Assembly: GCF_046105845.1 (NCBI RefSeq)
Contig: NZ_CP151004.1
Length of the DNA stretch: 64,000 bases
Source: Escherichia coli
Lineage (GTDB): Bacteria; Pseudomonadota; Gammaproteobacteria; Enterobacterales; Enterobacteriaceae
Reading direction: 5' to 3' (one strand)
Each line of letters starts with the position of its first letter. The stretch's first letter is position 1. The notes under the pieces are model-generated. The model ran no database searches, was not told where the DNA came from, and worked only from the letters and a program-made list of their open reading frames with translations. Below, one piece after another: positions 10,427-50,298 of this stretch. Made by a program: the position numbers and the translations under genes.

Positions 10427-11287
10427 TTAAGATGCCTTTCTAATCAACCGATGCCCCTCATTCATCATCAGGATTTTGCTATACACATCTTCCTCGACGG
10501 CGTTTTTTGCTGATGCCATCACTCGTGCCAGATTCGCCTCGTTGTGATTATTCACATACGCTTTGCCGACGGCGGTGATAAACGCTTTGCGCAGATCGCT
10601 GGCGATATTTACTTTAGCGACGTGATAATTAACAAAGCTGCGCAATATCTCCGGGGCGATACCGGAGCCGCCGTGAATAACCAACGGCACCGGACAGACT
10701 TCGGCAATGCGCTTCAGCAAGGGGATATCGATCCGCGGTATATCGTCCAGACCATGAACGTTACCAATAGAAACTGCCAGCATGTCGCAACCGGTGCGCT
10801 CGACAAAGGTCTTCACCTTTTCCGGTTCCGTTTTGCAATCGGCTTCGCTGACGTGATCATCTTCTTTGCCGAGAATCGCCCCCAGCTCCGCTTCAACCGG
10901 TACGCCATAGGATTTACAGAAATCGACAGCTTCCTGGGTGAAAGCGATATTCTCTTCAAAAGAGAATGCGGCACCGTCAATCATGACCGAGGTAAAGCCC
11001 GCGCGCACCGCCTGTTTAACATCCTCCTGAGTTTTCCCGTGATCCAGATGAAGACTGACCGGAACATCCATTTTATCGGCGTGACGTTTCACGATTTCAT
11101 AAATGTAATCGTATCCCGAGAGTTGTGCATTGGTGGGCGCAATCTGAATGAAGTTGGGTAATCCTGAACGCTCAATGGCGTTTAAAATTGAAATCGTCGT
11201 CTCCAGATTGGTGGTATTAAACGCGCCCGCTAATACCCGTTTTTCCTGAATGCGGTCGAGCAGTATCCGTCCATTAACTAATGGCAT
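10427..11287 (-). CDS. Class II ketose-bisphosphate aldolase (FbaA/GatY/KbaY family)
   Basis: 286-aa ORF with LLDRIQEKRVLAGAFN, LHLDHG and VIHGGSG motifs typical of class II zinc aldolases; GAGG SD upstream. Confidence 0.8.
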   Translation of the reverse strand: MPLVNGRILLDRIQEKRVLAGAFNTTNLETTISILNAIERSGLPNFIQIAPTNAQLSGYDYIYEIVKRHADKMDVPVSLHLDHGKTQEDVKQAVRAGFTSVMIDGAAFSFEENIAFTQEAVDFCKSYGVPVEAELGAILGKEDDHVSEADCKTEPEKVKTFVERTGCDMLAVSIGNVHGLDDIPRIDIPLLKRIAEVCPVPLVIHGGSGIAPEILRSFVNYHVAKVNIASDLRKAFITAVGKAYVNNHNEANLARVMASAKNAVEEDVYSKILMMNEGHRLIRKAS

Positions 11288-11317
11288 TTGAAAACCTCAT
11301 CTTTTAATATCAGTTAA

Positions 11318-11587
11318 TTATTCAGCTTCACCGAAGCGGTCACGAAATAAGGCGGTGAGAGTTTGTATTGCCTCATTTTCATCATCGCCTTCGCAGCGTA
11401 TTTCCACCGTTTTACCGCCTTTTATTCCGGCGCGCATAATATTCATCATGCTGGTGGCATTAATATCATTACCCTCATAATGCAGCGTCACTTTACAGCT
11501 AAACTTTTTGGCGGCTTTTACCAGACAAGCCGCCGGACGTGCATGCAGGCCAGTACTGTTTCTGACCTCCACGGTTTTACTCAACAT
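11318..11587 (-). CDS. HPr-family phosphocarrier protein (operon-encoded HPr paralog)
   Basis: 89-aa ORF with GLHARPA (His15) and a Ser at position 46; GGAGG SD upstream; overlaps the 3' end of the kinase gene by 11 bp. Confidence 0.75.
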   Translation of the reverse strand: MLSKTVEVRNSTGLHARPAACLVKAAKKFSCKVTLHYEGNDINATSMMNIMRAGIKGGKTVEIRCEGDDENEAIQTLTALFRDRFGEAE

Positions 11588-13085
11588 AGTGCTCCTCCCG
11601 ATGGTGTAATGGCATCACGCCTTCTTGCTGTAATTTCAACTGATACCAGCTTTTCCATTTGTGCTGATAACGCTGTAATTGATGGTATCTCGCCCGATTC
11701 GGTAACAAACGTTGGGCTATGGTAACTTGCGGCGGTGGAATATCCGGTGCGGCAGTTAATAATGCTCCGACAGAAACCGCCTCGTTAAATGCAATTGCCT
11801 CAACCGGACGCTGTAAAATATCCGCCTTTAATTGCAGCCAAAGGGGATTATGGGTTGCCGGGCCGATTACTTTTAACGCGCTGGTGCCAGGCACATTAAA
11901 ACAGGCGAAGCAGTTGGCAAATTCCATGGTTAATCCCAGTGAGACGCTGGCAATTAACATGTCAATATTTAACGTATCGCTAAGCCCATAAAATAATCCA
12001 CGGGTATGGCGATTTTTATAGGGCGAACCCGAACCGCGAAGATGTGGAATAAAGAGGGGAATGTCATCGAGCGACCAGTTCCCCGCCAGGTAATCCGCAT
12101 GTCCGCGAGTAAGTGATGCGGCGATCTCCTCATCGGTTAGCCGGAACGTGTTACGCAGCCACTCCAGAGCGAAACCGCCCACGGGCAGCGACGCAAACAG
12201 GGTGAACTGGTTTGCAAGCGAATAACAGCCGTTTGCCAGCTTGTCACGTTTGGCCTGTTCATCCAGCGTCGGTTGTGTATCCAGTTGCAGAATGCCTTCT
12301 GTGGTCCCCGTCGAGTTAAGGATATCGCCCGGCATCATCTGCAACGCCCGTGCACCCACCATATGGTCATGTCCGGCCAGCGTCACGCTGACCGGTTGCG
12401 AGAACCCAAGCGTTTTGCAGAGCGACTCGCTGACCCATCCGGCGTGTTCGCCTGGCTGCACCAATGGCGCAAATGCTGAACAGGGAACGTGTAACAACGC
12501 CGCCGCTTTCGCTGACCATTCGCCTTTGCGCACGTCCAGACACAGCGTGCGGCTGGCTAAGGTGATATCCGTGCGCTGTTCGCCGGTCAGCCGCCAGAGC
12601 AGTACTTCCGGCGCATGTAGCCAACGCAGGCCGCGGCGATTACGCAGTGGGTAATGTTCCAGCAACCAACGCATTTTGAAGGCAGAGTAATTGCTGTGCA
12701 GCGGTAACCCGCAAATGTCATAAAGTGCCGCACTGTCTGCCTCGCTAAGTGTAGCCAGATACTCTTCACCGCGACGGTCATACCAGGCCAGCATTGGCGT
12801 CAGGATCTCGCCATGCTCGTCAAGGAACACGCCTGACTCGCCAAAACTGGCAATGCTTATCCGCCTGACTGGCAGCGGCGAAGCGGCGTTCAGTTGCGCT
12901 ATCGCCTGGCGGACCTCCTGCCAGAGGGCGTCGATATCGAAATCGACATCGCCCTGTGGGGAGATCTGTTTTGCCGTCACGAATTTATGCGCGCCCAACG
13001 TCGTTGCGTCCAGGCAGGAAAAGCAGGTGACTTTGCAATTGGTGGTGCCAATATCGATAACGATAGCTGCGCTGTTATCAGGCAT
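11577..13085 (-). CDS. FGGY-family carbohydrate kinase
   Basis: 502-aa ORF with N-terminal AIVIDIGTTNCKV (FGGY phosphate-1 motif) and two-domain actin-like fold size; overlaps the EIIC stop by 8 bp. Confidence 0.8.
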   Translation of the reverse strand: MPDNSAAIVIDIGTTNCKVTCFSCLDATTLGAHKFVTAKQISPQGDVDFDIDALWQEVRQAIAQLNAASPLPVRRISIASFGESGVFLDEHGEILTPMLAWYDRRGEEYLATLSEADSAALYDICGLPLHSNYSAFKMRWLLEHYPLRNRRGLRWLHAPEVLLWRLTGEQRTDITLASRTLCLDVRKGEWSAKAAALLHVPCSAFAPLVQPGEHAGWVSESLCKTLGFSQPVSVTLAGHDHMVGARALQMMPGDILNSTGTTEGILQLDTQPTLDEQAKRDKLANGCYSLANQFTLFASLPVGGFALEWLRNTFRLTDEEIAASLTRGHADYLAGNWSLDDIPLFIPHLRGSGSPYKNRHTRGLFYGLSDTLNIDMLIASVSLGLTMEFANCFACFNVPGTSALKVIGPATHNPLWLQLKADILQRPVEAIAFNEAVSVGALLTAAPDIPPPQVTIAQRLLPNRARYHQLQRYQHKWKSWYQLKLQQEGVMPLHHREEHYVE

Positions 13086-14436
13086 AAACCGTGCTCCGCG
13101 TCATTCGGAAAATACCATACAGTACCAGGGCGATAACCGGCACCAGACCAATGGCGATGAGATTGCCGTTGAAGATTTCCAGCAGCCAGAAGCGGAACGG
13201 GTTACCGCCATCAAGGAAACTGGAGACCTGGCCGCTGGAGCCTTCGGCAAATTTGAAATTAACGTCTTTCGCCATTCCGGTAATAAACGGCGCGATTTTA
13301 GTCGCAATCCACAGATCGGCAATAATCACCGGGATCGCCGCCAGAACGGTGCGGAAAATGTTGCCACGGCTGGCTAAAGCAATCATCGACGCCATTACCG
13401 CCAGGTTGGCAAGGTCGCCAAGCGGCAGGACTTCATTACCCGGAAGGACAAACGCGATAAAGACCGAGATTGGCGTCAGCAGCAGGGCGGTGGAGATAAT
13501 CGCCGGGTTACCTACGGCAACGGCGATATCCAGGCCGATATAGAGATCGTCACGGTCAGGGTATTTGGCATTGAGATACTTTTTAATGGCTTCAGACAGC
13601 GGTAATAAACCTTCCATCAGGATGCGTACCATGCGTGGCAGGATGAACATCACACCGCCAATGCTGATGCCAAGCAGCAAGACTTTTTTGAAATCGTATC
13701 CGGCAATTACGCCGAGCAGAATGCCCAGAATAGTACCAACCATCATCGGTTCGCCGAATATGCCAAACTTTTTCTGTACGGTTTCCGGATCGATATGAAT
13801 ACGATTGAGGCCGGGGATATGGTCGATGATTTTGTCGACCAGCAGACCGACCGGAAAGAACACCACCGAAGAGAGCGTCGGCAATGAGATCCCTTCCAGG
13901 CCAAAGTATTTTTGTACCAGTGGCGCAGACCAGTCGGCGAGTTTAAGTACTACCACCGCAGCAATCGCCGCCGCCAGTAAACCAAAAAACAGGCTGCCGG
14001 TGCTGTAATAAACCAGCGTACCAGCAAGGGCAAAATGCCAGTAGTTCCACATATCTACATCAACGGTGCGGGTTTTATTTAACGCCAGCATCGCCACGTT
14101 AATCAGAATAGTCAGGGGAATAACAAACGGGGCAATTGGCGAACCCCATGTAATAGCGGAAAGCGGCGGCCAGCCTAAATCCACCACCGGTAAATTAATT
14201 CCGGTGCGTTCAACCATCGCCTGGGCCGCTGGCCCGACATTGCTGGTAAGAATATCGAAAATGGCATAAATACCGACAAAACCAATGCCGACCGTTAATG
14301 ACGAACGTAAGGCTTTAGCGGGTTTTACTTTAAAACAGAGAGCAAGAATAAATAACACCAACGGCAACATTACCGTGGGACCAAATCCCAATATATATTG
14401 CACTATATTATAGAGGGTATGCGCGATATCGTTCAT
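13078..14436 (-). CDS. PTS galactitol-family EIIC permease
   Basis: Track ORF 13078..14466 (GTG); start refined to ATG 14436 with AAGAGG SD; multi-TM protein colinear with GatC (LGPTVMLP, GIGFVGI, GEP motifs). Confidence 0.85.
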   Translation of the reverse strand: MNDIAHTLYNIVQYILGFGPTVMLPLVLFILALCFKVKPAKALRSSLTVGIGFVGIYAIFDILTSNVGPAAQAMVERTGINLPVVDLGWPPLSAITWGSPIAPFVIPLTILINVAMLALNKTRTVDVDMWNYWHFALAGTLVYYSTGSLFFGLLAAAIAAVVVLKLADWSAPLVQKYFGLEGISLPTLSSVVFFPVGLLVDKIIDHIPGLNRIHIDPETVQKKFGIFGEPMMVGTILGILLGVIAGYDFKKVLLLGISIGGVMFILPRMVRILMEGLLPLSEAIKKYLNAKYPDRDDLYIGLDIAVAVGNPAIISTALLLTPISVFIAFVLPGNEVLPLGDLANLAVMASMIALASRGNIFRTVLAAIPVIIADLWIATKIAPFITGMAKDVNFKFAEGSSGQVSSFLDGGNPFRFWLLEIFNGNLIAIGLVPVIALVLYGIFRMTRSTVYA

Positions 14437-14450
14437 AATAAACCTCTTTT

Positions 14451-14483
14451 TCAGGCGAGAGCGCACCTCGCGTTAGCGCCTGA
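14451..14483 (-). other. Intra-operon stem-loop between PTS EIIB and EIIC genes
   Basis: TCAGGCG...CGCCTGA 7-bp stem enclosing a GC-rich sub-hairpin, in the 76-bp EIIB-EIIC spacer. Confidence 0.35.
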
Positions 14484-14512
14484 TGGAGTGGGTTGAAATT
14501 AATTATTATTAA

Positions 14513-14794
14513 TTACTTTTTAAGGATCGAAACAATTTGCGCCAGTACTTTCTCTTCGCCAATACCGGTAATAATCGGCAAGCCGTTAACCACCGGGACG
14601 TCGAGTTCATAAGGCACTTTAGTCGTTGAGACTACCAGTGCTACGCCATCAGTATTTCCAGGTAAAGAGGCAACGTTGGTTTGGGAATAATTGACGTTAA
14701 GACCGTGCTCTTTACAATATTCCATGACTTTTTCTGTTACCGCCGTGGATGTGGCAATACCCGTGGCGCAGACAAATAAAATGGTTTGACTCAT
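14513..14794 (-). CDS. PTS galactitol-family EIIB component
   Basis: 93-aa ORF with ILFVCATGIATS (phosphoryl-Cys loop) resembling GatB. Confidence 0.8.
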   Translation of the reverse strand: MSQTILFVCATGIATSTAVTEKVMEYCKEHGLNVNYSQTNVASLPGNTDGVALVVSTTKVPYELDVPVVNGLPIITGIGEEKVLAQIVSILKK

Positions 14795-15264
14795 ATTTCA
14801 CCTCGTTCTTTCATTTTGTTTAAGATTACTGTGTGTATTTCTGTTGTTTCCATCGTAAGCAGGGCGCGCATAAAGGGCGTATCCTGAATCATCTCCATAA
14901 TCCAGCCCAGGGCATTTAATTGTTTATTACTTTCGCTTAAGGCGAGCAAAAAAATCACCCTGACAGGTACGGGGTCAGGATCGCCGCCCATATCGGCAAA
15001 CTCTACCGGTTCCGGCAGGATGCCGACGGCAATTGCATTGTGCCTGACATGTTTATGGTCCGTGTGCGGAATGGCGACACACGGTGGTTCGGTAGGCAGC
15101 CCCGTTGGGTACGTCGCCTCACGTTTCAGTACGTGATCGGCAAAATCAGGGACCACCAGCTCGGCGGCAACCAACGGTTGCGCTAACTGACGGATGATCT
15201 GTTCAACGCTTAACCCTGCCGGAAGTCGTTGAATATAATTTTCCTGAAACTGTATGCCTTGCAT
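14791..15264 (-). CDS. PTS EIIA component (mannitol/fructose/galactitol type fold)
   Basis: 157-aa ORF with CVAIPHTDHKH active-site His region resembling GatA; 4-bp overlap with the EIIB start. Confidence 0.8.
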   Translation of the reverse strand: MQGIQFQENYIQRLPAGLSVEQIIRQLAQPLVAAELVVPDFADHVLKREATYPTGLPTEPPCVAIPHTDHKHVRHNAIAVGILPEPVEFADMGGDPDPVPVRVIFLLALSESNKQLNALGWIMEMIQDTPFMRALLTMETTEIHTVILNKMKERGEI

Positions 15265-15288
15265 TTTATTCCTCTTAAAAAAGTGTAC

Positions 15289-16035
15289 TTAACTCACTTC
15301 CCGCCGTTGCAGCACGGTGCCCAGATAATATTTATTTCCTTTTAACCAGACGTTGCCAAACTCAACGGGTAACTCTCGGGAGAAAAAGACTAACTGCTCC
15401 AGATGCAAAACGGGTGCATCTTCACTGATATCTAAAAAATGACCGCGTTCATTACCAATTAATCGCGCGGCATAGCGACTTTCAGAGTAACGAATTTTTC
15501 TTTGCGACAAACTTTCTATTGTTGGAAATAAATTGTGTTGATTAAAATCGATTTCCACGATGCCGGGACATAGCTCAATATTGATACGGTTCTCTATCAG
15601 CATCGCTTTTTCATCACCAATTGAACGTAACCGCTCAAGGTAAAGAATATCCTGACCGGGCGTTATTCTTAATTTCTCTGCCACATAACGATTAGCCGGT
15701 TCAATCCGTGACGTAATAACTTCAGTGGTAAAGTGTATTTTCTGGCTTTCCAGCGATTCCGCGAATGACAATAATCCTTCACCTAACGGATATGCCACGT
15801 TCTCTTTTTTGACAAATGTTCCCTTCCCCTGGACCTGAATCAACACGCCTTCTTTTACCAGTTGGGCGACCGCTTTTTTAACGGTTCCCCGACTCACTTC
15901 CAGCATATCCATAATCTGGTATTCCGAAGGAATGCGATCGTCTTCCACCAGATCCCCGGTATAAATACTTTCTCTTATCCACTCCACCACTTGTTGATAG
16001 AGCGGTATTTGTGACGACTTACTTAATGATTTCAT
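15289..16035 (-). CDS. GntR/HutC-family transcriptional regulator (HTH + UTRA effector domain)
   Basis: Track ORF 15289..16044 (GTG); start refined to ATG 16035 (AGGTG upstream); N-terminal wHTH (IPSEYQIMDMLEVSRGTVKKAVAQLVKEGVL) and C-terminal UTRA-like domain. Confidence 0.8.
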   Translation of the reverse strand: MKSLSKSSQIPLYQQVVEWIRESIYTGDLVEDDRIPSEYQIMDMLEVSRGTVKKAVAQLVKEGVLIQVQGKGTFVKKENVAYPLGEGLLSFAESLESQKIHFTTEVITSRIEPANRYVAEKLRITPGQDILYLERLRSIGDEKAMLIENRINIELCPGIVEIDFNQHNLFPTIESLSQRKIRYSESRYAARLIGNERGHFLDISEDAPVLHLEQLVFFSRELPVEFGNVWLKGNKYYLGTVLQRREVS

Positions 16036-16058
16036 GGCGCGCACCTGAACATTTACAG

Positions 16059-16072
16059 TTGTCTATGGACAA
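16059..16072. promoter_or_regulatory. Palindrome TTGTC-TATG-GACAA upstream of the island GntR/HutC regulator gene; candidate operator
   Basis: Perfect 5-bp inverted arms 24 bp upstream of the regulator ATG, followed by a third TGGACAA half-site at 16076-16082. Confidence 0.4.
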
Positions 16073-16233
16073 TCATGGACAACTTCAAGCGTATAGTAGG
16101 TGAACGGGAGAAAAAGAGGATCGAAGCGTCTCACATTTTGAGGGACCAAATCGTGATCAAAAAAATGTGACGTGAGTCGATATTTGTCAGAAGTTTACTG
16201 CGCCGTAAGGAAATAACGGCGCGTTGGTAGGTG

Positions 16234-19037
<2,804 letters not shown>

Positions 19038-19041
<4 letters not shown>

Positions 19042-29974: not shown

Positions 29975-30244
29975 TTATTTTTTAACTTTAAATTTCTTCT
30001 GCCAGACCAGCAGTTCAAACACGCCGAAAAGGAAAATCCGCACCTTTTCGGCGGTGGTCATCTGCGGGCCATCTTTCGGTAAAGTGGATTTCAATAGCGC
30101 CAGCTGCATACCATGCATCAGCACGGTAAAAATCAGCGCCACGTTAACGAAAATATTCAGCGGGCGCGGGAAGGGATGCACCAGGTTGAGGATTAAAAAT
30201 CCCCAAACGCAGAGCATTAACAAACGTCCAATATTAATCAGCAT
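29975..30244 (-). CDS. yhhL: Small membrane protein YhhL (DUF1145)
   Basis: Track ORF 29975..30367; start refined to ATG 30244 (MLINIGRLLMLCVWGFLILNL...), which overlaps the 3' end of rsmD by 11 bp. Confidence 0.85.
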   Translation of the reverse strand: MLINIGRLLMLCVWGFLILNLVHPFPRPLNIFVNVALIFTVLMHGMQLALLKSTLPKDGPQMTTAEKVRIFLFGVFELLVWQKKFKVKK

Positions 30245-32478: not shown

Positions 32479-33147
32479 ATGATTCGCTTTGAACATGTCA
32501 GCAAGGCTTATCTCGGTGGGAGACAGGCGCTGCAGGGCGTTACGTTCCATATGCAGCCGGGTGAGATGGCGTTTCTGACCGGTCATTCCGGCGCAGGGAA
32601 AAGTACCCTCCTGAAGCTGATCTGTGGGATTGAGCGGCCCAGCGCCGGGAAAATCTGGTTTAGCGGCCATGACATCACGCGTCTGAAAAACCGTGAAGTT
32701 CCGTTTCTGCGCCGCCAGATTGGCATGATTTTCCAGGATCACCATCTCCTGATGGACCGTACTGTCTACGATAATGTGGCGATCCCGCTGATTATCGCCG
32801 GTGCCAGCGGTGACGATATTCGCCGCCGTGTATCCGCGGCACTGGATAAAGTCGGGCTACTGGACAAAGCGAAGAACTTCCCTATTCAGCTTTCGGGCGG
32901 TGAACAACAACGTGTTGGCATTGCCCGCGCGGTGGTGAACAAGCCCGCGGTACTGCTGGCGGACGAACCGACTGGTAACCTGGACGACGCGTTGTCGGAA
33001 GGCATTTTACGTCTGTTTGAAGAGTTTAACCGCGTTGGGGTAACCGTATTGATGGCAACGCACGACATCAACCTGATCTCGCGGCGTTCCTATCGCATGC
33101 TCACCCTGAGCGATGGTCACTTGCATGGAGGCGTGGGCCATGAATAA
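32479..33147 (+). CDS. ftsE: Cell division ABC ATPase FtsE
   Basis: 222-aa ABC ATPase ([17 protein letters not shown]). Confidence 0.96.
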
Positions 33148-36672: not shown

Positions 36673-36731
36673 TCATTAATCGGCAACTTTGGGTTGCCGC
36701 CAAATTGCTAATATCGAGTACGTTGCTTCAT

Positions 36732-36831
<100 letters not shown>

Positions 36832-36871
36832 ATTTCTCGTTGGTCATCACTTTTGAAATCAAACTTGACGA

Positions 36872-38835: not shown

Positions 38836-39762
38836 ATGTCTGAGCAGTTTTTGTATTTCTTGCAGCAGATGTTTAACGGCGTCACGCTGGGCAGTACCTA
38901 CGCGCTGATAGCCATCGGCTACACCATGGTTTACGGCATTATCGGCATGATCAACTTCGCCCACGGCGAGGTTTATATGATTGGCAGCTATGTCTCATTT
39001 ATGATCATCGCCGCGCTGATGATGATGGGCATTGATACCGGCTGGCTACTGGTGGCGGCTGGATTCGTCGGCGCAATCGTCATTGCCAGCGCCTACGGCT
39101 GGAGTATCGAACGGGTAGCCTATCGCCCGGTGCGTAACTCTAAGCGCCTGATTGCACTCATCTCTGCAATCGGTATGTCCATCTTCCTGCAAAACTACGT
39201 CAGCCTGACCGAAGGTTCGCGCGACGTGGCGCTGCCGAGCCTGTTTAACGGTCAGTGGGTGGTGGGCCATAGCGAAAACTTCTCTGCCTCTATTACTACC
39301 ATGCAGGCGGTGATCTGGATTGTCACCTTCCTCGCCATGCTGGCGCTGACGATTTTCATTCGCTATTCCCGTATGGGGCGCGCCTGTCGTGCTTGCGCGG
39401 AAGATCTGAAAATGGCGAGTCTGCTTGGCATTAACACCGACCGGGTGATTGCGCTGACCTTTGTGATTGGCGCGGCGATGGCGGCGGTGGCGGGCGTGCT
39501 GCTCGGTCAGTTCTACGGCGTAATTAACCCCTACATCGGCTTTATGGCCGGGATGAAAGCCTTTACTGCTGCGGTGCTCGGTGGGATTGGCAGCATTCCG
39601 GGAGCGATGATTGGCGGCCTGATTCTGGGGATTGCGGAGGCGCTCTCTTCTGCCTATCTGAGTACGGAATATAAAGATGTGGTCTCATTCGCCCTGCTGA
39701 TTCTGGTGTTGCTGGTGATGCCGACCGGTATTCTGGGTCGCCCGGAGGTAGAGAAAGTATGA
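38836..39762 (+). CDS. livH: Branched-chain amino acid ABC permease LivH
   Basis: 308-aa multi-TM ORF; first permease of livHMGF. Confidence 0.95.
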
Positions 39763-41036
39763 AACCGATGCATATTGCAATGGCGCTGCTCTCTGCCGCT
39801 ATGTTCTTTGTGCTGGCGGGCGTCTTTATGGGCGTGCAACTGGAGCTGGATGGCACCAAACTGGTGGTCGACACGGCTTCAGACATCCGTTGGCAGTGGG
39901 TGTTTATCGGCACGGCGGTGGTCTTTTTCTTCCAGCTTTTGCGACCGGCTTTCCAGAAAGGGCTAAAAAGCGTTTCCGGGCCGAAGTTTATTCTGCCCGC
40001 GATTGATGGCTCCACGGTGAAGCAGAAACTCTTCCTCGTGGCGCTGCTGGTGCTTGCGGTGGCGTGGCCGTTTATGGTCTCACGCGGAACGGTGGATATC
40101 GCCACCCTGACCATGATCTACATTATCCTCGGCCTCGGGCTGAACGTGGTGGTAGGGCTTTCCGGCCTGCTGGTGCTGGGGTACGGTGGCTTTTACGCCA
40201 TCGGCGCTTACACCTTTGCGCTGCTCAATCACTATTACGGTCTGGGGTTCTGGACCTGTCTGCCTATTGCCGGGTTAATGGCAGCGGCGGCGGGCTTCCT
40301 GCTCGGCTTCCCGGTGTTGCGTTTACGTGGCGACTATCTGGCGATCGTTACCCTCGGTTTCGGCGAAATTGTGCGCATATTGCTGCTCAATAACACTGAA
40401 ATCACCGGCGGCCCGAACGGAATCAGTCAGATCCCGAAACCGACGCTCTTCGGACTCGAGTTCAGCCGTACCGCCCGTGAAGGCGGCTGGGATACGTTCA
40501 GTAATTTCTTTGGCCTGAAATACGATCCCTCCGATCGTGTCATCTTCCTCTACCTGGTGGCGTTGCTGCTGGTGGTGCTAAGCCTGTTTGTCATTAACCG
40601 CCTGCTGCGGATGCCGCTGGGGCGTGCGTGGGAAGCGTTGCGTGAAGACGAGATCGCCTGCCGTTCGCTGGGTTTAAGCCCGCGTCGTATCAAGCTGACC
40701 GCTTTTACCATCAGTGCCGCGTTTGCCGGTTTTGCCGGAACGCTGTTTGCTGCGCGCCAGGGCTTTGTCAGCCCGGAATCCTTCACCTTTGCTGAATCGG
40801 CGTTTGTACTGGCGATAGTGGTGCTCGGCGGTATGGGATCGCAGTTTGCGGTGATTCTGGCGGCTGTTCTGCTGGTGGTGTCGCGCGAATTGATGCGTGA
40901 TTTCAACGAATACAGCATGTTAATGCTCGGTGGTTTGATGGTGCTGATGATGATCTGGCGTCCGCAGGGCTTGCTGCCCATGACGCGCCCGCAACTCAAG
41001 CTGAAAAACGGCGCAGCGAAAGGAGAGCAGGCATGA
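39759..41036 (+). CDS. livM: Branched-chain amino acid ABC permease LivM
   Basis: 425-aa multi-TM ORF; 4-bp overlaps with livH and livG. Confidence 0.95.
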
Positions 41037-42515: not shown

Positions 42516-42575
42516 TAACACGTTGATTGATAAGGAGTCAAAAGACTCCTTTGAGACAGGTTACAAATGTAAAAT

Positions 42576-42676
42576 TGCCTGATGCGCTGCGCTTATCAGG
42601 CCTACTGGATGAGTTGCAATATATTGAATTTGCACGATCTTGTAGGCCGGATAAGGCATTTACGCCGCATCCGGCA
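42576..42676. repeat. REP elements downstream of livF
   Basis: TGCCTGATGCGCTGCGCTTATCAGGCCTAC and inverted TGTAGGCCGGATAAGGCATTTACGCCGCATCCGGCA. Confidence 0.9.
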
Positions 42677-42912
42677 TGAAACGATGAGCAATCTGTAGAG
42701 TTTGATTCAGACCTTCTATTTTTCCCGCTTATCCGTGCCCCATCTCCCATTTTCCCTCACCCGTACCGTCACCGCCTTGTCATCTTTCTGACACCTTACT
42801 ATCTTACAAATGTAACAAAAAGGTTATTTTTCTGTAATTCGAGCATGTCATGTTACCCCGCGAGCATAAAACGCGTGAATTCGCGCATTCGGTACAACAA
42901 GAGAGATAAACG

Positions 42913-44404: not shown

Positions 44405-45292
44405 ATGTCATCATCCCGTCCGGTGTTCCGCTCGCGCTGGCTGCCCTATTTGCTGGTCGCGCCGCAGCTCATCATCACCGTTATCTTTTTTATCTGGCCT
44501 GCGGGCGAAGCGTTGTGGTACTCGCTGCAAAGCGTCGATCCGTTTGGTTTCTCCAGCCAGTTTGTCGGCCTGGATAACTTCGTCACGCTGTTTCATGACA
44601 GCTACTATCTCGACTCCTTCTGGACGACGATAAAATTCAGCACCTTTGTCACCGTCAGTGGTTTGCTGGTGTCGCTGTTCTTTGCGGCGCTGGTGGAGTA
44701 CATCGTGCGCGGCAGCCGTTTCTATCAAACCTTGATGCTGCTGCCGTATGCCGTGGCTCCCGCCGTTGCCGCCGTATTGTGGATCTTCCTGTTTAACCCT
44801 GGTCGCGGGCTGATCACCCATTTTCTCGCTGAGTTCGGCTACGACTGGAACCACGCGCAAAACAGCGGTCAGGCGATGTTTCTGGTGGTGTTTGCCTCGG
44901 TGTGGAAGCAAATCAGCTACAACTTTCTGTTCTTCTATGCCGCGCTGCAATCCATTCCCCGTTCGTTGATCGAAGCCGCAGCCATCGACGGTGCAGGCCC
45001 GATTCGCCGCTTCTTTAAGATTGCGCTGCCGCTTATCGCTCCGGTGAGTTTCTTCCTGCTGGTGGTGAACCTGGTGTACGCCTTCTTCGACACCTTCCCG
45101 GTGATCGACGCCGCCACGTCCGGCGGGCCGGTTCAGGCCACCACGACGCTGATTTATAAGATTTACCGCGAAGGCTTTACCGGACTGGATCTGGCTTCGT
45201 CTGCCGCGCAGTCGGTGGTGTTGATGTTCCTCGTCATCGTGCTGACGGTGGTGCAGTTCCGCTATGTTGAAAGCAAGGTGCGTTACCAATGA
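44405..45292 (+). CDS. ugpA: sn-glycerol-3-phosphate ABC permease UgpA
   Basis: 295-aa MalF-type permease. Confidence 0.95.
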
Positions 45293-46135: not shown

Positions 46136-47206
46136 ATGGCAGGACTGAAATTACAGGCAGTAACCAAAAGCTGGGATGGCAAAACCCAGGTCATTAAACC
46201 GCTGACCCTTGATGTGGCGGATGGCGAATTTATCGTGATGGTCGGGCCGTCTGGCTGCGGGAAATCGACGTTATTGCGAATGGTGGCCGGACTGGAGCGG
46301 GTGACGGAAGGCGATATCTGGATCAACGACCAGCGGGTGACCGAAATGGAGCCGAAAGATCGCGGGATTGCGATGGTGTTCCAGAACTACGCTCTCTACC
46401 CACATATGAGCGTCGAAGAGAACATGGCGTGGGGGCTGAAAATTCGCGGCATGGGCAAGCAGCAAATTGCCGAACGTGTTAAAGAAGCGGCGCGCATTCT
46501 GGAGCTGGACGGCCTGCTTAAGCGCCGCCCGCGTGAGCTATCTGGCGGTCAGCGTCAGCGTGTGGCGATGGGGCGTGCGATTGTGCGTGAGCCGGCAGTG
46601 TTCCTGTTTGATGAGCCGCTCTCTAACCTCGATGCCAAGTTGCGTGTGCAGATGCGTCTTGAACTGCAACAGCTGCACCGTCGCCTGAAAACGACTTCAC
46701 TCTACGTTACCCACGATCAGGTTGAAGCGATGACGCTCGCCCAGCGAGTAATGGTGATGAACGGCGGCGTTGCCGAACAGATTGGCACGCCAGTTGAAGT
46801 GTACGAAAAGCCCGCCAGCCTGTTTGTGGCGAGTTTTATCGGCAGTCCGGCGATGAATCTGCTGGCAGGGCGTGTGAATAACGAAGGCACGCATTTCGAA
46901 CTGGATGGCGGTATCGCGCTGCCGCTAAACGGTGGCTACCGTCAGTATGCTGGACGTAAAATGACTCTCGGCATTCGCCCGGAACATATAGCGCTAAGCT
47001 CGCAGGCAGAAGGTGGTGTGCCGCTGGTGATGGACACGCTGGAGATCCTCGGCGCAGATAATCTGGCGCACGGACGCTGGGGCGAACAGAAGCTGGTGGT
47101 GCGACTGGCGCATCAGGAGCGCCCGACGGCAGGCAGCACGCTGTGGCTGCATCTGCCGGAAAATCAGCTGCATCTTTTTGATGGTGAAACAGGACAACGA
47201 GTATGA
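46136..47206 (+). CDS. ugpC: sn-glycerol-3-phosphate ABC ATPase UgpC
   Basis: Track ORF 46097..47206; start refined to ATG 46136 ([23 protein letters not shown]...); MalK-like ATPase. Confidence 0.93.
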
Positions 47207-47946
47207 GTAACTGGCCTTATCCCCGCATCGTCGCCCATCGTGGCGGCGGTAAACTGGCCCCGGAAAACACCCTGGCGGCAATCGACGTGGGGGCAAAATA
47301 CGGTCATAAGATGATCGAATTTGACGCGAAGTTATCGAAAGATGGCGAGATCTTCCTGCTCCATGACGACAATCTCGAACGTACCAGCAACGGCTGGGGC
47401 GTCGCGGGTGAACTGAACTGGCAGGATTTACTGCGCGTGGATGCGGGCAGTTGGTACAGCAAAGCGTTTAAAGGTGAGCTGCTGCCGTTGCTTTCGCAGG
47501 TGGCGGAACGCTGTCGCGAACACGGGATGATGGCGAATATCGAAATCAAACCCACCACTGGCACCGGGCCATTAACGGGCAAAACGGTGGCGCTGGCGGC
47601 ACGCGAACTGTGGGCCGATATGACGCCGCCGCTGCTGTCATCGTTTGAGATTGATGCTTTAGAAGCTGCACAACAGGCTGCACCGGAACTGCCGCGCGGT
47701 TTGTTGTTGGATGAGTGGCGCGACGACTGGCGAGAATTGACCGCGCGGCTGGGCTGCGTCTCTATTCATCTCAATCATAAGTTGCTCGATAAAGCGCGAG
47801 TGATACAGTTGAAAGACGCCGGATTACGGATTCTGGTTTATACCGTCAATAAACCCCAGCGCGCGGCAGAGTTGCTGCGCTGGGGCGTGGATTGCATCTG
47901 CACCGATGCGATTGACGTGATTGGTCCGAACTTTACGGCCCAATAG
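47203..47946 (+). CDS. ugpQ: Glycerophosphodiester phosphodiesterase UgpQ
   Basis: 247-aa [26 protein letters not shown] (GDPD motif HRG); 4-bp overlap with ugpC. Confidence 0.95.
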
Positions 47947-50238: not shown

Positions 50239-50242
50239 TATC

Positions 50243-50273
50243 TTAAGCCCTCTCCCGATAGGCGAGGGCTTAA
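50243..50273. terminator. Bidirectional hairpin between convergent ggt and yhhY
   Basis: TTAAGCCCTC-N11-GAGGGCTTAA perfect 10-bp stem in the 60-bp intergenic gap. Confidence 0.6.
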
Positions 50274-50298
50274 ATGACAAACTTAGATTGCAAATTCT

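Follow-up and report, generated by a model that had tools for sequence, protein, structure and literature searches.

Stop and start codons of neighbouring genes overlap repeatedly in the window, a stretch of 64,000 nucleotides of Escherichia coli DNA (assembly GCF_046105845.1, contig NZ_CP151004.1). One of these junctions joins the gene of an FGGY-family carbohydrate kinase to that of an HPr-family phosphocarrier by an overlap of 11 nt, and it raises two questions: are such junctions translationally coupled, and do they tell anything about the origin of the genes that carry them? That adjacent genes of bacterial operons share a few nucleotides at stop and start, and that this is linked to translational coupling, is textbook knowledge. 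An earlier note on this DNA had gone further, reading the overlaps in the island that contains this pair as a mark of native, tightly coupled operons rather than of recent mosaic insertions.

Gene Overlaps in the Window

The gene order of the window runs from yhiM through yhiI-rbbA-yhhJ to the island, and from there through nikREDCBA, acpT, ftsYEX, rpoH, liv, ugp, ggt, gnt and asd to glgBXCA. The island lies between yhhJ and nikR and spans positions 9675-16233. The nearest complete genome is that of E. coli SC418, which is 98-99% identical to the window; its PGAP gene coordinates were moved onto the window via blastn, and each reading frame was then checked. The starts of the nik and yhiI-rbbA-yhhJ genes are concordant with the curated starts of K-12. 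The window is without the DUF1778/ataT toxin-antitoxin remnant that SC418 carries between livJ and panM (36673-36871), its TPR gene between livF and ugpB (42516-42912) and its yrhB-yrhA-tssD (Hcp) genes between ggt and yhhY (50239-50298). Canonical REP pairs (GCCGGATGCGGCGTAAACGCCTTATCCGGCCTAC and an inverted partner) are found downstream of livJ and livF, at 36732-36835 and 42570-42681.

Overlaps are present in 18 of the 45 adjacent same-strand gene pairs of the window, the commonest length being 4 nt (ten pairs), followed by 1 nt (four pairs) and by 8 and 11 nt (two pairs each; Table 1). Five more same-strand pairs are spaced by 1-5 nt. The overlaps that had been claimed for the island (kinase/HPr, EIIC/kinase, EIIA/EIIB and hicA/hicB) are all confirmed, with lengths of 11, 8, 4 and 4 nt, respectively. 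The accompanying list of 4-11 bp overlaps in the core stands for yhiI/rbbA, nikB/nikC, nikD/nikE, livH/livM, livM/livG, ugpA/ugpE, ugpC/ugpQ and glgB/glgX, each of 4 nt, but has to be corrected elsewhere. The overlaps at rbbA/yhhJ, nikC/nikD and glgC/glgA measure 1 nt only, below that range, and ugpE/ugpC and glgX/glgC do not overlap at their annotated starts, being separated by 1 and 17 nt. The latter two pairs overlap solely when the longest ORF is used and the annotated start is disregarded.

The geometries of kinase/HPr and EIIC/kinase both recur in the core, at rsmD/yhhL (11 nt, ATGnTGAnTAA) and ftsE/ftsX (8 nt), respectively; these core genes are universal in E. coli, whereas the two island junctions lie in a variable segment. 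Two further arrangements were noticed: gntK starts with TTG (54333) and gntU with GTG (54864), with 3 nt between these two genes, a pair that the earlier list did not contain, and ugpQ (+) and yhhA (-) are convergent, with a 14-nt overlap of their 3' ends (47933-47946).

Table 1. Coordinates of genes, overlaps and signals in the window.
Feature	Position	Strand	Remarks
yhiI/rbbA overlap	5815-5818	+	4 nt
rbbA/yhhJ overlap	8550	+	1 nt (TGATG)
hicA	9791-10021	+	76-codon TTG-initiated ORF with the whole HicA_toxin domain (PF07927); 5' end putative
hicA stop/hicB start overlap	10018-10021	+	4 nt, GTGA
hicB, antitoxin	10018-10377	+	PF05534
Class II ketose-bisphosphate aldolase	10427-11287	-	PF01116; NF005943 above cut-off
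HPr-family phosphocarrier	11318-11587	-	89 aa; PF00381, E=2e-30; His15 in GLHARPA
Kinase/HPr overlap	11577-11587	-	11 nt, ATGTTGAGTAA; HPr ATG 11587-11585, FGGY-kinase stop TAA 11579-11577
HPr Shine-Dalgarno	11592-11599	-	GGGAGGAG, within the kinase gene, 4-5 nt before the ATG
FGGY-family carbohydrate kinase	11577-13085	-	502 aa; PF00370, PF02782
EIIC stop/kinase start overlap	13078-13085	-	8 nt, ATGCCTGA
PTS EIIC, galactitol (GAT) family	13078-14436	-	PF03611, E=1e-91
PTS EIIB	14513-14794	-	PF02302
EIIA stop/EIIB start overlap	14791-14794	-	4 nt, ATGA; GAGGTG 5 nt upstream
PTS EIIA (type 2)	14791-15264	-	PF00359
GntR/UTRA (HutC-type) regulator	15289-16035	-	PF00392, PF07702; first gene of the minus-strand cluster
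nikD/nikE overlap	17444-17447	-	4 nt
nikC/nikD overlap	18208	-	1 nt
nikB/nikC overlap	19038-19041	-	4 nt (GTGA)
nikA/nikB overlap	19982	-	1 nt; absent from the earlier note
rsmD/yhhL overlap	30234-30244	-	11 nt, ATGCTGATTAA; core pair, absent from the earlier note
ftsE/ftsX overlap	33140-33147	+	8 nt, ATGAATAA; absent from the earlier note
livH/livM overlap	39759-39762	+	4 nt
livM/livG overlap	41033-41036	+	4 nt
ugpA/ugpE overlap	45289-45292	+	4 nt
ugpC/ugpQ overlap	47203-47206	+	4 nt
glgB/glgX overlap	60605-60608	+	4 nt
glgC/glgA overlap	63891	+	1 nt (TAATG)

The overlap pattern is non-random, yet of an already well-known kind. Distances of exactly -4 or -1 were counted in 14 of the 45 pairs, where about 1.5 would be expected from uniform distances between -11 and +50 (p ~1e-10). 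The range of -8 to +6 holds 21 pairs, compared to 24% (707 of 2987) of the pairs in the whole E. coli genome (p = 7e-4; PMC10666635), and the overlap lengths agree with the published E. coli ranking of -4 > -1 > -8 (PMC10666635). The abundant ABC-transporter operons of the window (nik, liv, ugp, rbbA-yhhJ and ftsEX) fit its excess of short overlaps, as such overlaps are 4.5-fold enriched among the subunits of heteromeric complexes (PMC10666635). A Shine-Dalgarno core is present inside the upstream gene at 15 of the 18 overlaps under a strict definition and at 17 under a relaxed one, against 4% of control coding windows, and at none of the 18 junctions could a promoter or terminator fit between the genes. 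Island and core are indistinguishable in their overlapping fraction (4/7 vs 14/38, Fisher p = 0.41).

Published E. coli overlap pairs share the same-strand layout, the ATGA, TGATG and 8-nt overlaps and the Shine-Dalgarno inside the upstream gene, and are likewise enriched in transporter and complex subunits (PMC6728339, PMC10666635). One difference is the kinase/HPr overlap, which at -11 exceeds the range regarded as predictive.

The Kinase/HPr Junction

The stop codon of the kinase gene lies 8 nt past the HPr start codon. The downstream product belongs to the HPr family, as both the PTS-HPr domain and the active-site His at position 15 are present, and in a profile search positions 1-81 of TIGR01003 match HPr residues 1-81. 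The start codons of HPr and kinase are backed by homology and by their conservation in other genera. Based on the profile alignment, the position of His15 and the conserved start codons, the 11-nt overlap is real and does not result from the choice of start. A match of at least 95% identity to the 81-nt sequence of the junction was found in 1629 E. coli genomes, and in all matches listed for E. coli both kinase and HPr are annotated across it. The aldolase gene follows 30 nt after HPr, without overlap. To our knowledge, no kinase-HPr complex has been described.

Conservation across Enterobacterales

The kinase protein was used to scan one genome per species, which gave 18 loci, 16 of them with the operon. 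The cluster of PTS, FGGY-kinase, HPr, class II aldolase and GntR genes (10427-16035 in the window; loci L005-L021) is shared by about ten enterobacterial genera and occurs in three gene orders. Both the ATGA of IIA/IIB and the ATGCCTGA of IIC/kinase occur unchanged at all 16 loci, over a range of kinase identity of 61-98%; the homologous operons in other genera were checked for a missing IIA/IIB or IIC/kinase overlap, and all retain both. At 11 of the 16 loci, no nik or yhhJ homologue is present within 5 kb. The overlaps therefore belong to the operon and travel with it from one genomic context to another.

The kinase/HPr junction is labile in comparison. The overlap of 11 nt occurs only in the Escherichia/Citrobacter order (kinase-HPr-aldolase), in which the GGGAGGAG Shine-Dalgarno of HPr is also kept. 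In Enterobacter cancerogenus and Pantoea the distance is -32, the TAA having become TCA, and the aldolase gene is relocated upstream, where it overlaps IIA by 20 nt. Ten loci (~8 genera) have the order kinase-aldolase-HPr, and the junction is missing there.

The identities within the cluster are unequal, at 42-66% for kinase, EIIA and HPr and 83-93% for EIIC, EIIB, regulator and aldolase. A recombination mosaic was considered, but the same ranking is seen in Citrobacter amalonaticus and in distant genera, which fits differences in rate better. HPr is excepted from this reading, since its position changes too.

Translational Coupling

The window overlaps are probably ordinary E. coli operon junctions at which translation would proceed by termination-reinitiation, inherited with their operon and uninformative on its residence time. 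The downstream start, with its Shine-Dalgarno lying in the preceding gene, overlaps the stop of that gene by 1, 4, 8 or 11 nt, and a ribosome ending the upstream gene would reinitiate locally at this overlapping start. The output of the downstream protein would thereby be tied to that of the upstream one, for instance in the case of ABC-transporter and PTS subunits. At positions 11577-11587, a ribosome that has stopped on the kinase UAA would be caught again by the GGGAGGAG upstream of the HPr AUG. Reporter assays on other E. coli pairs, in which four of five native 4-nt-overlap pairs were coupled by termination-reinitiation (PMC6728339), allow coupling at most junctions of the window to be reasonably inferred. 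Coupling drops steeply with distance, and a range of -8 to +10 nt is regarded as predictive (PMC10666635); 16 overlaps of the window fall within it, while kinase/HPr and rsmD/yhhL, both at -11, fall outside.

Three other explanations were weighed. The overlaps might be artefacts of calling the longest ORF, with the true starts further downstream, as indeed holds for the listed ugpE/ugpC and glgX/glgC pairs. As an account of the overlaps in general this is hardly credible: the start codons in the island coincide with position 1-2 of the family profiles, His15 of HPr is in its canonical place and every related locus retains the ATGs. It is also very improbable that an mRNA hairpin closes off the HPr initiation region and can be opened only by a ribosome translating the kinase. 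Unmasking of structure is an established mechanism at other E. coli pairs (see PMC6728339 for review), but the folding energy of the 120 nt around the HPr start (-24.9 kcal/mol) practically equals the mean of the shuffles (-24.8; z = -0.03), and the Shine-Dalgarno and AUG are mostly unpaired in the centroid structure. A masking hairpin at the HPr start was thus rejected, its folding amounting to nothing beyond that of the shuffles.

More deserving of consideration, though still unlikely, is that the overlaps result from genome compaction and from drift of stops and starts, each downstream gene being initiated de novo at its own Shine-Dalgarno. The native 4-nt pair bioBF was uncoupled in the reporter assay (PMC6728339). 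At kinase/HPr, the Shine-Dalgarno is near-consensus and lies in a region of no unusual structure, the overlap length shifts by the plain loss of a stop codon, and the junction vanishes with changes in gene order. Against this stand the majority of tested E. coli pairs, which were coupled (PMC6728339), and the -4 and -8 junctions, which are invariant at a wide divergence at which the neighbouring third codon positions are saturated. Such invariance implies selection on the exact geometry. Termination-reinitiation is therefore kept as the preferred explanation for the window, with a weaker case at kinase/HPr than elsewhere: its overlap is long, and its strong Shine-Dalgarno is not sequestered by RNA structure, so that independent initiation could suffice.

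The hicAB Genes

The hicAB genes form a type II toxin-antitoxin pair, with the HicA_toxin gene directly upstream of the HicB gene and a 4-nt overlap between them. The 5' end of hicA is polymorphic. A run of A is one residue shorter in the window (A6, ~9781-9786) than in SC418 (A7), so that the ATG at 9747 is out of frame and its ORF stops at codon 33; only the TTG-initiated ORF of 76 codons reaches the hicB start in the window. Strain AMA1167 has A7 yet reads ATG-TAA, and PGAP calls a CTG start and a HicA of 76 aa; further variants occur among other strains. Our initial view of hicA as a frameshifted pseudogene was softened, as the 76-codon ORF contains the full HicA domain and a HicA of the same length is annotated in AMA1167. 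The polymorphism could be real phase-like variation, decay of the toxin or a homopolymer sequencing error.

The PTS Operon and Known Systems

The domains PF03611, PF02302 and PF00359 are co-encoded in the cluster, all above their gathering scores, as is found in operons of the Gat family. The GatA, GatB and GatC equivalogs are unmatched: the scores are 57, 60 and 476 bits, where 139, 95 and 542, respectively, are required. The FGGY kinase likewise falls short of all specific kinase equivalogs of NCBIfam, and no component of the cluster reaches any specific NCBIfam equivalog cut-off, save that of the generic 'class II aldolase' model. The operon shares with gatYZABCD of E. coli the Gat-family EIIA, EIIB and EIIC and a GatY-like class II ketose-bisphosphate aldolase. 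It differs in adding an FGGY kinase, its own HPr and a GntR/UTRA regulator, in being without a GatZ or GatD homologue and in that all its components score under the gat equivalog cut-offs.

A further counterpart may be STM3779-STM3785 of Salmonella Typhimurium, a cluster for an HPr, a class II aldolase, a pentulose/hexulose kinase, the Gat-type IIC, IIB and IIA and a GntR regulator. Presumably, it has the kinase-aldolase-HPr order, as in most genera scanned. No Salmonella locus was among the 18 loci of the kinase scan, with its one genome per species, and a search of the literature on the PTS/FGGY/aldolase operon or the yhhJ-nikR island found nothing relevant.

A joint reading of these data, in which the cluster is an uncharacterised catabolic route and its kinase and HPr are functional partners rather than merely compacted, is quite improbable. 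If it were true, the FGGY kinase would add another phosphate to a sugar phosphate delivered by the PTS, and the class II aldolase would then cleave the product. The translational fusion of HPr to the end of the kinase gene in Escherichia and Citrobacter would be a derived arrangement that reflects the partnership.

History of the yhhJ-nikR Site

The yhhJ-nikR site is a hypervariable site of the chromosome. Among 5426 complete E. coli genomes, the PTS operon is present in 1637 (30%) and hicAB in 2073. The site is occupied by hicAB and the PTS operon in the window, by hicAB only in AMA1167, and elsewhere in E. coli by hicAB, the PTS operon and a DUF3829 gene, which lies, where present, between the GntR regulator and nikR. 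The PTS operon alone is found in E. whittamii, with a REP pair replacing hicAB, and such PTS-only occupancy occurs among E. coli genomes as well. In K-12 the site contains rhsB-yhhH-yrhC'-yhhI. The independent presence of hicAB, the PTS operon and the DUF3829 gene across genomes makes the island modular, which contradicts the earlier 'not mosaic' for the island as a whole. The REP pair of E. whittamii (L006 7652-7760), which resembles those downstream of livJ and livF (~80% identical), is located between the aldolase gene and yhhJ. An alteration of the aldolase 3' end by insertion of hicAB was rejected, as the end in the window matches that of C. amalonaticus; in the alignment, it is the E. 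whittamii-type end that is changed, by the REP pair (283 vs 286 aa).

The composition of the island differs from that of the core. The comparison of codon usage that had been proposed as a check was run, and it shows that the island departs from the core (p = 3e-5 for the codon-usage score), with a GC3 of 0.52 against 0.63 (Mann-Whitney p = 2e-5). The GC content is 44% for hicAB, 50% for the PTS operon and 55% for the core. The lowest GC of the window (35-38%, GC3 ~0.30) was observed in two DUF4049 paralogues, a yhiL-like gene (894-2501) and yhiJ (2763-4385), which are more 'foreign-looking' than the island. The yhiL-like gene is intact in the window and 89% identical to that of SC418; the yhiL of K-12 is a pseudogene.

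By its sequence divergence, the PTS operon itself looks like an old resident of the yhhJ-nikR site. Compared with E. whittamii, the operon genes have an identity of 0.82-0.85 at 4-fold degenerate sites and the nik, yhhJ and rbbA genes of the flanks one of 0.78-0.86, indicating that operon and flanks diverged together. In C. amalonaticus the operon is likewise situated between nikR and yhhJ. Its identity among E. coli (96.8-99.2%) is within the range of the flanking core (97-98%), which is consistent with a long residence. Variable presence and a distinct composition and codon usage, as expected for a recent island, are both found here, while the operon is neither less diverged than its flanks against E. 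whittamii nor at another site in E. whittamii or C. amalonaticus, as would also be expected of a recent island. No integrase or transposase gene is annotated by PGAP in the SC418 equivalent of 9675-16233.

These data bear on the claim that the overlaps show the island genes to be native and tightly coupled, with no recent mosaic insertion. The co-divergence of the PTS operon with its flanks, the shared site in C. amalonaticus and the core-like identity among E. coli agree with it, and 'not recent' can be retained for the PTS operon, on grounds of divergence and shared site that are unrelated to the overlaps. The step from overlaps to native origin fails: the same overlaps are equally present in other genera and at other loci, and cannot discriminate native from acquired genes. 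Together with the deviating codon usage and GC3 of the island and the separate variation of its modules, down to the rhsB and REP-pair occupants in K-12 and E. whittamii, this makes the claim unlikely.

Pervasive overlaps do exist in the window, but they are commonplace, and their biology has already been described and quantified genome-wide for E. coli. Overlaps pass along with their operon and are therefore silent on the time an island has resided in the chromosome, which makes them unusable for dating or classifying it. The yhhJ-nikR site is best pictured as harbouring an old PTS operon and a hicAB module inserted separately, with other occupants in other genomes.
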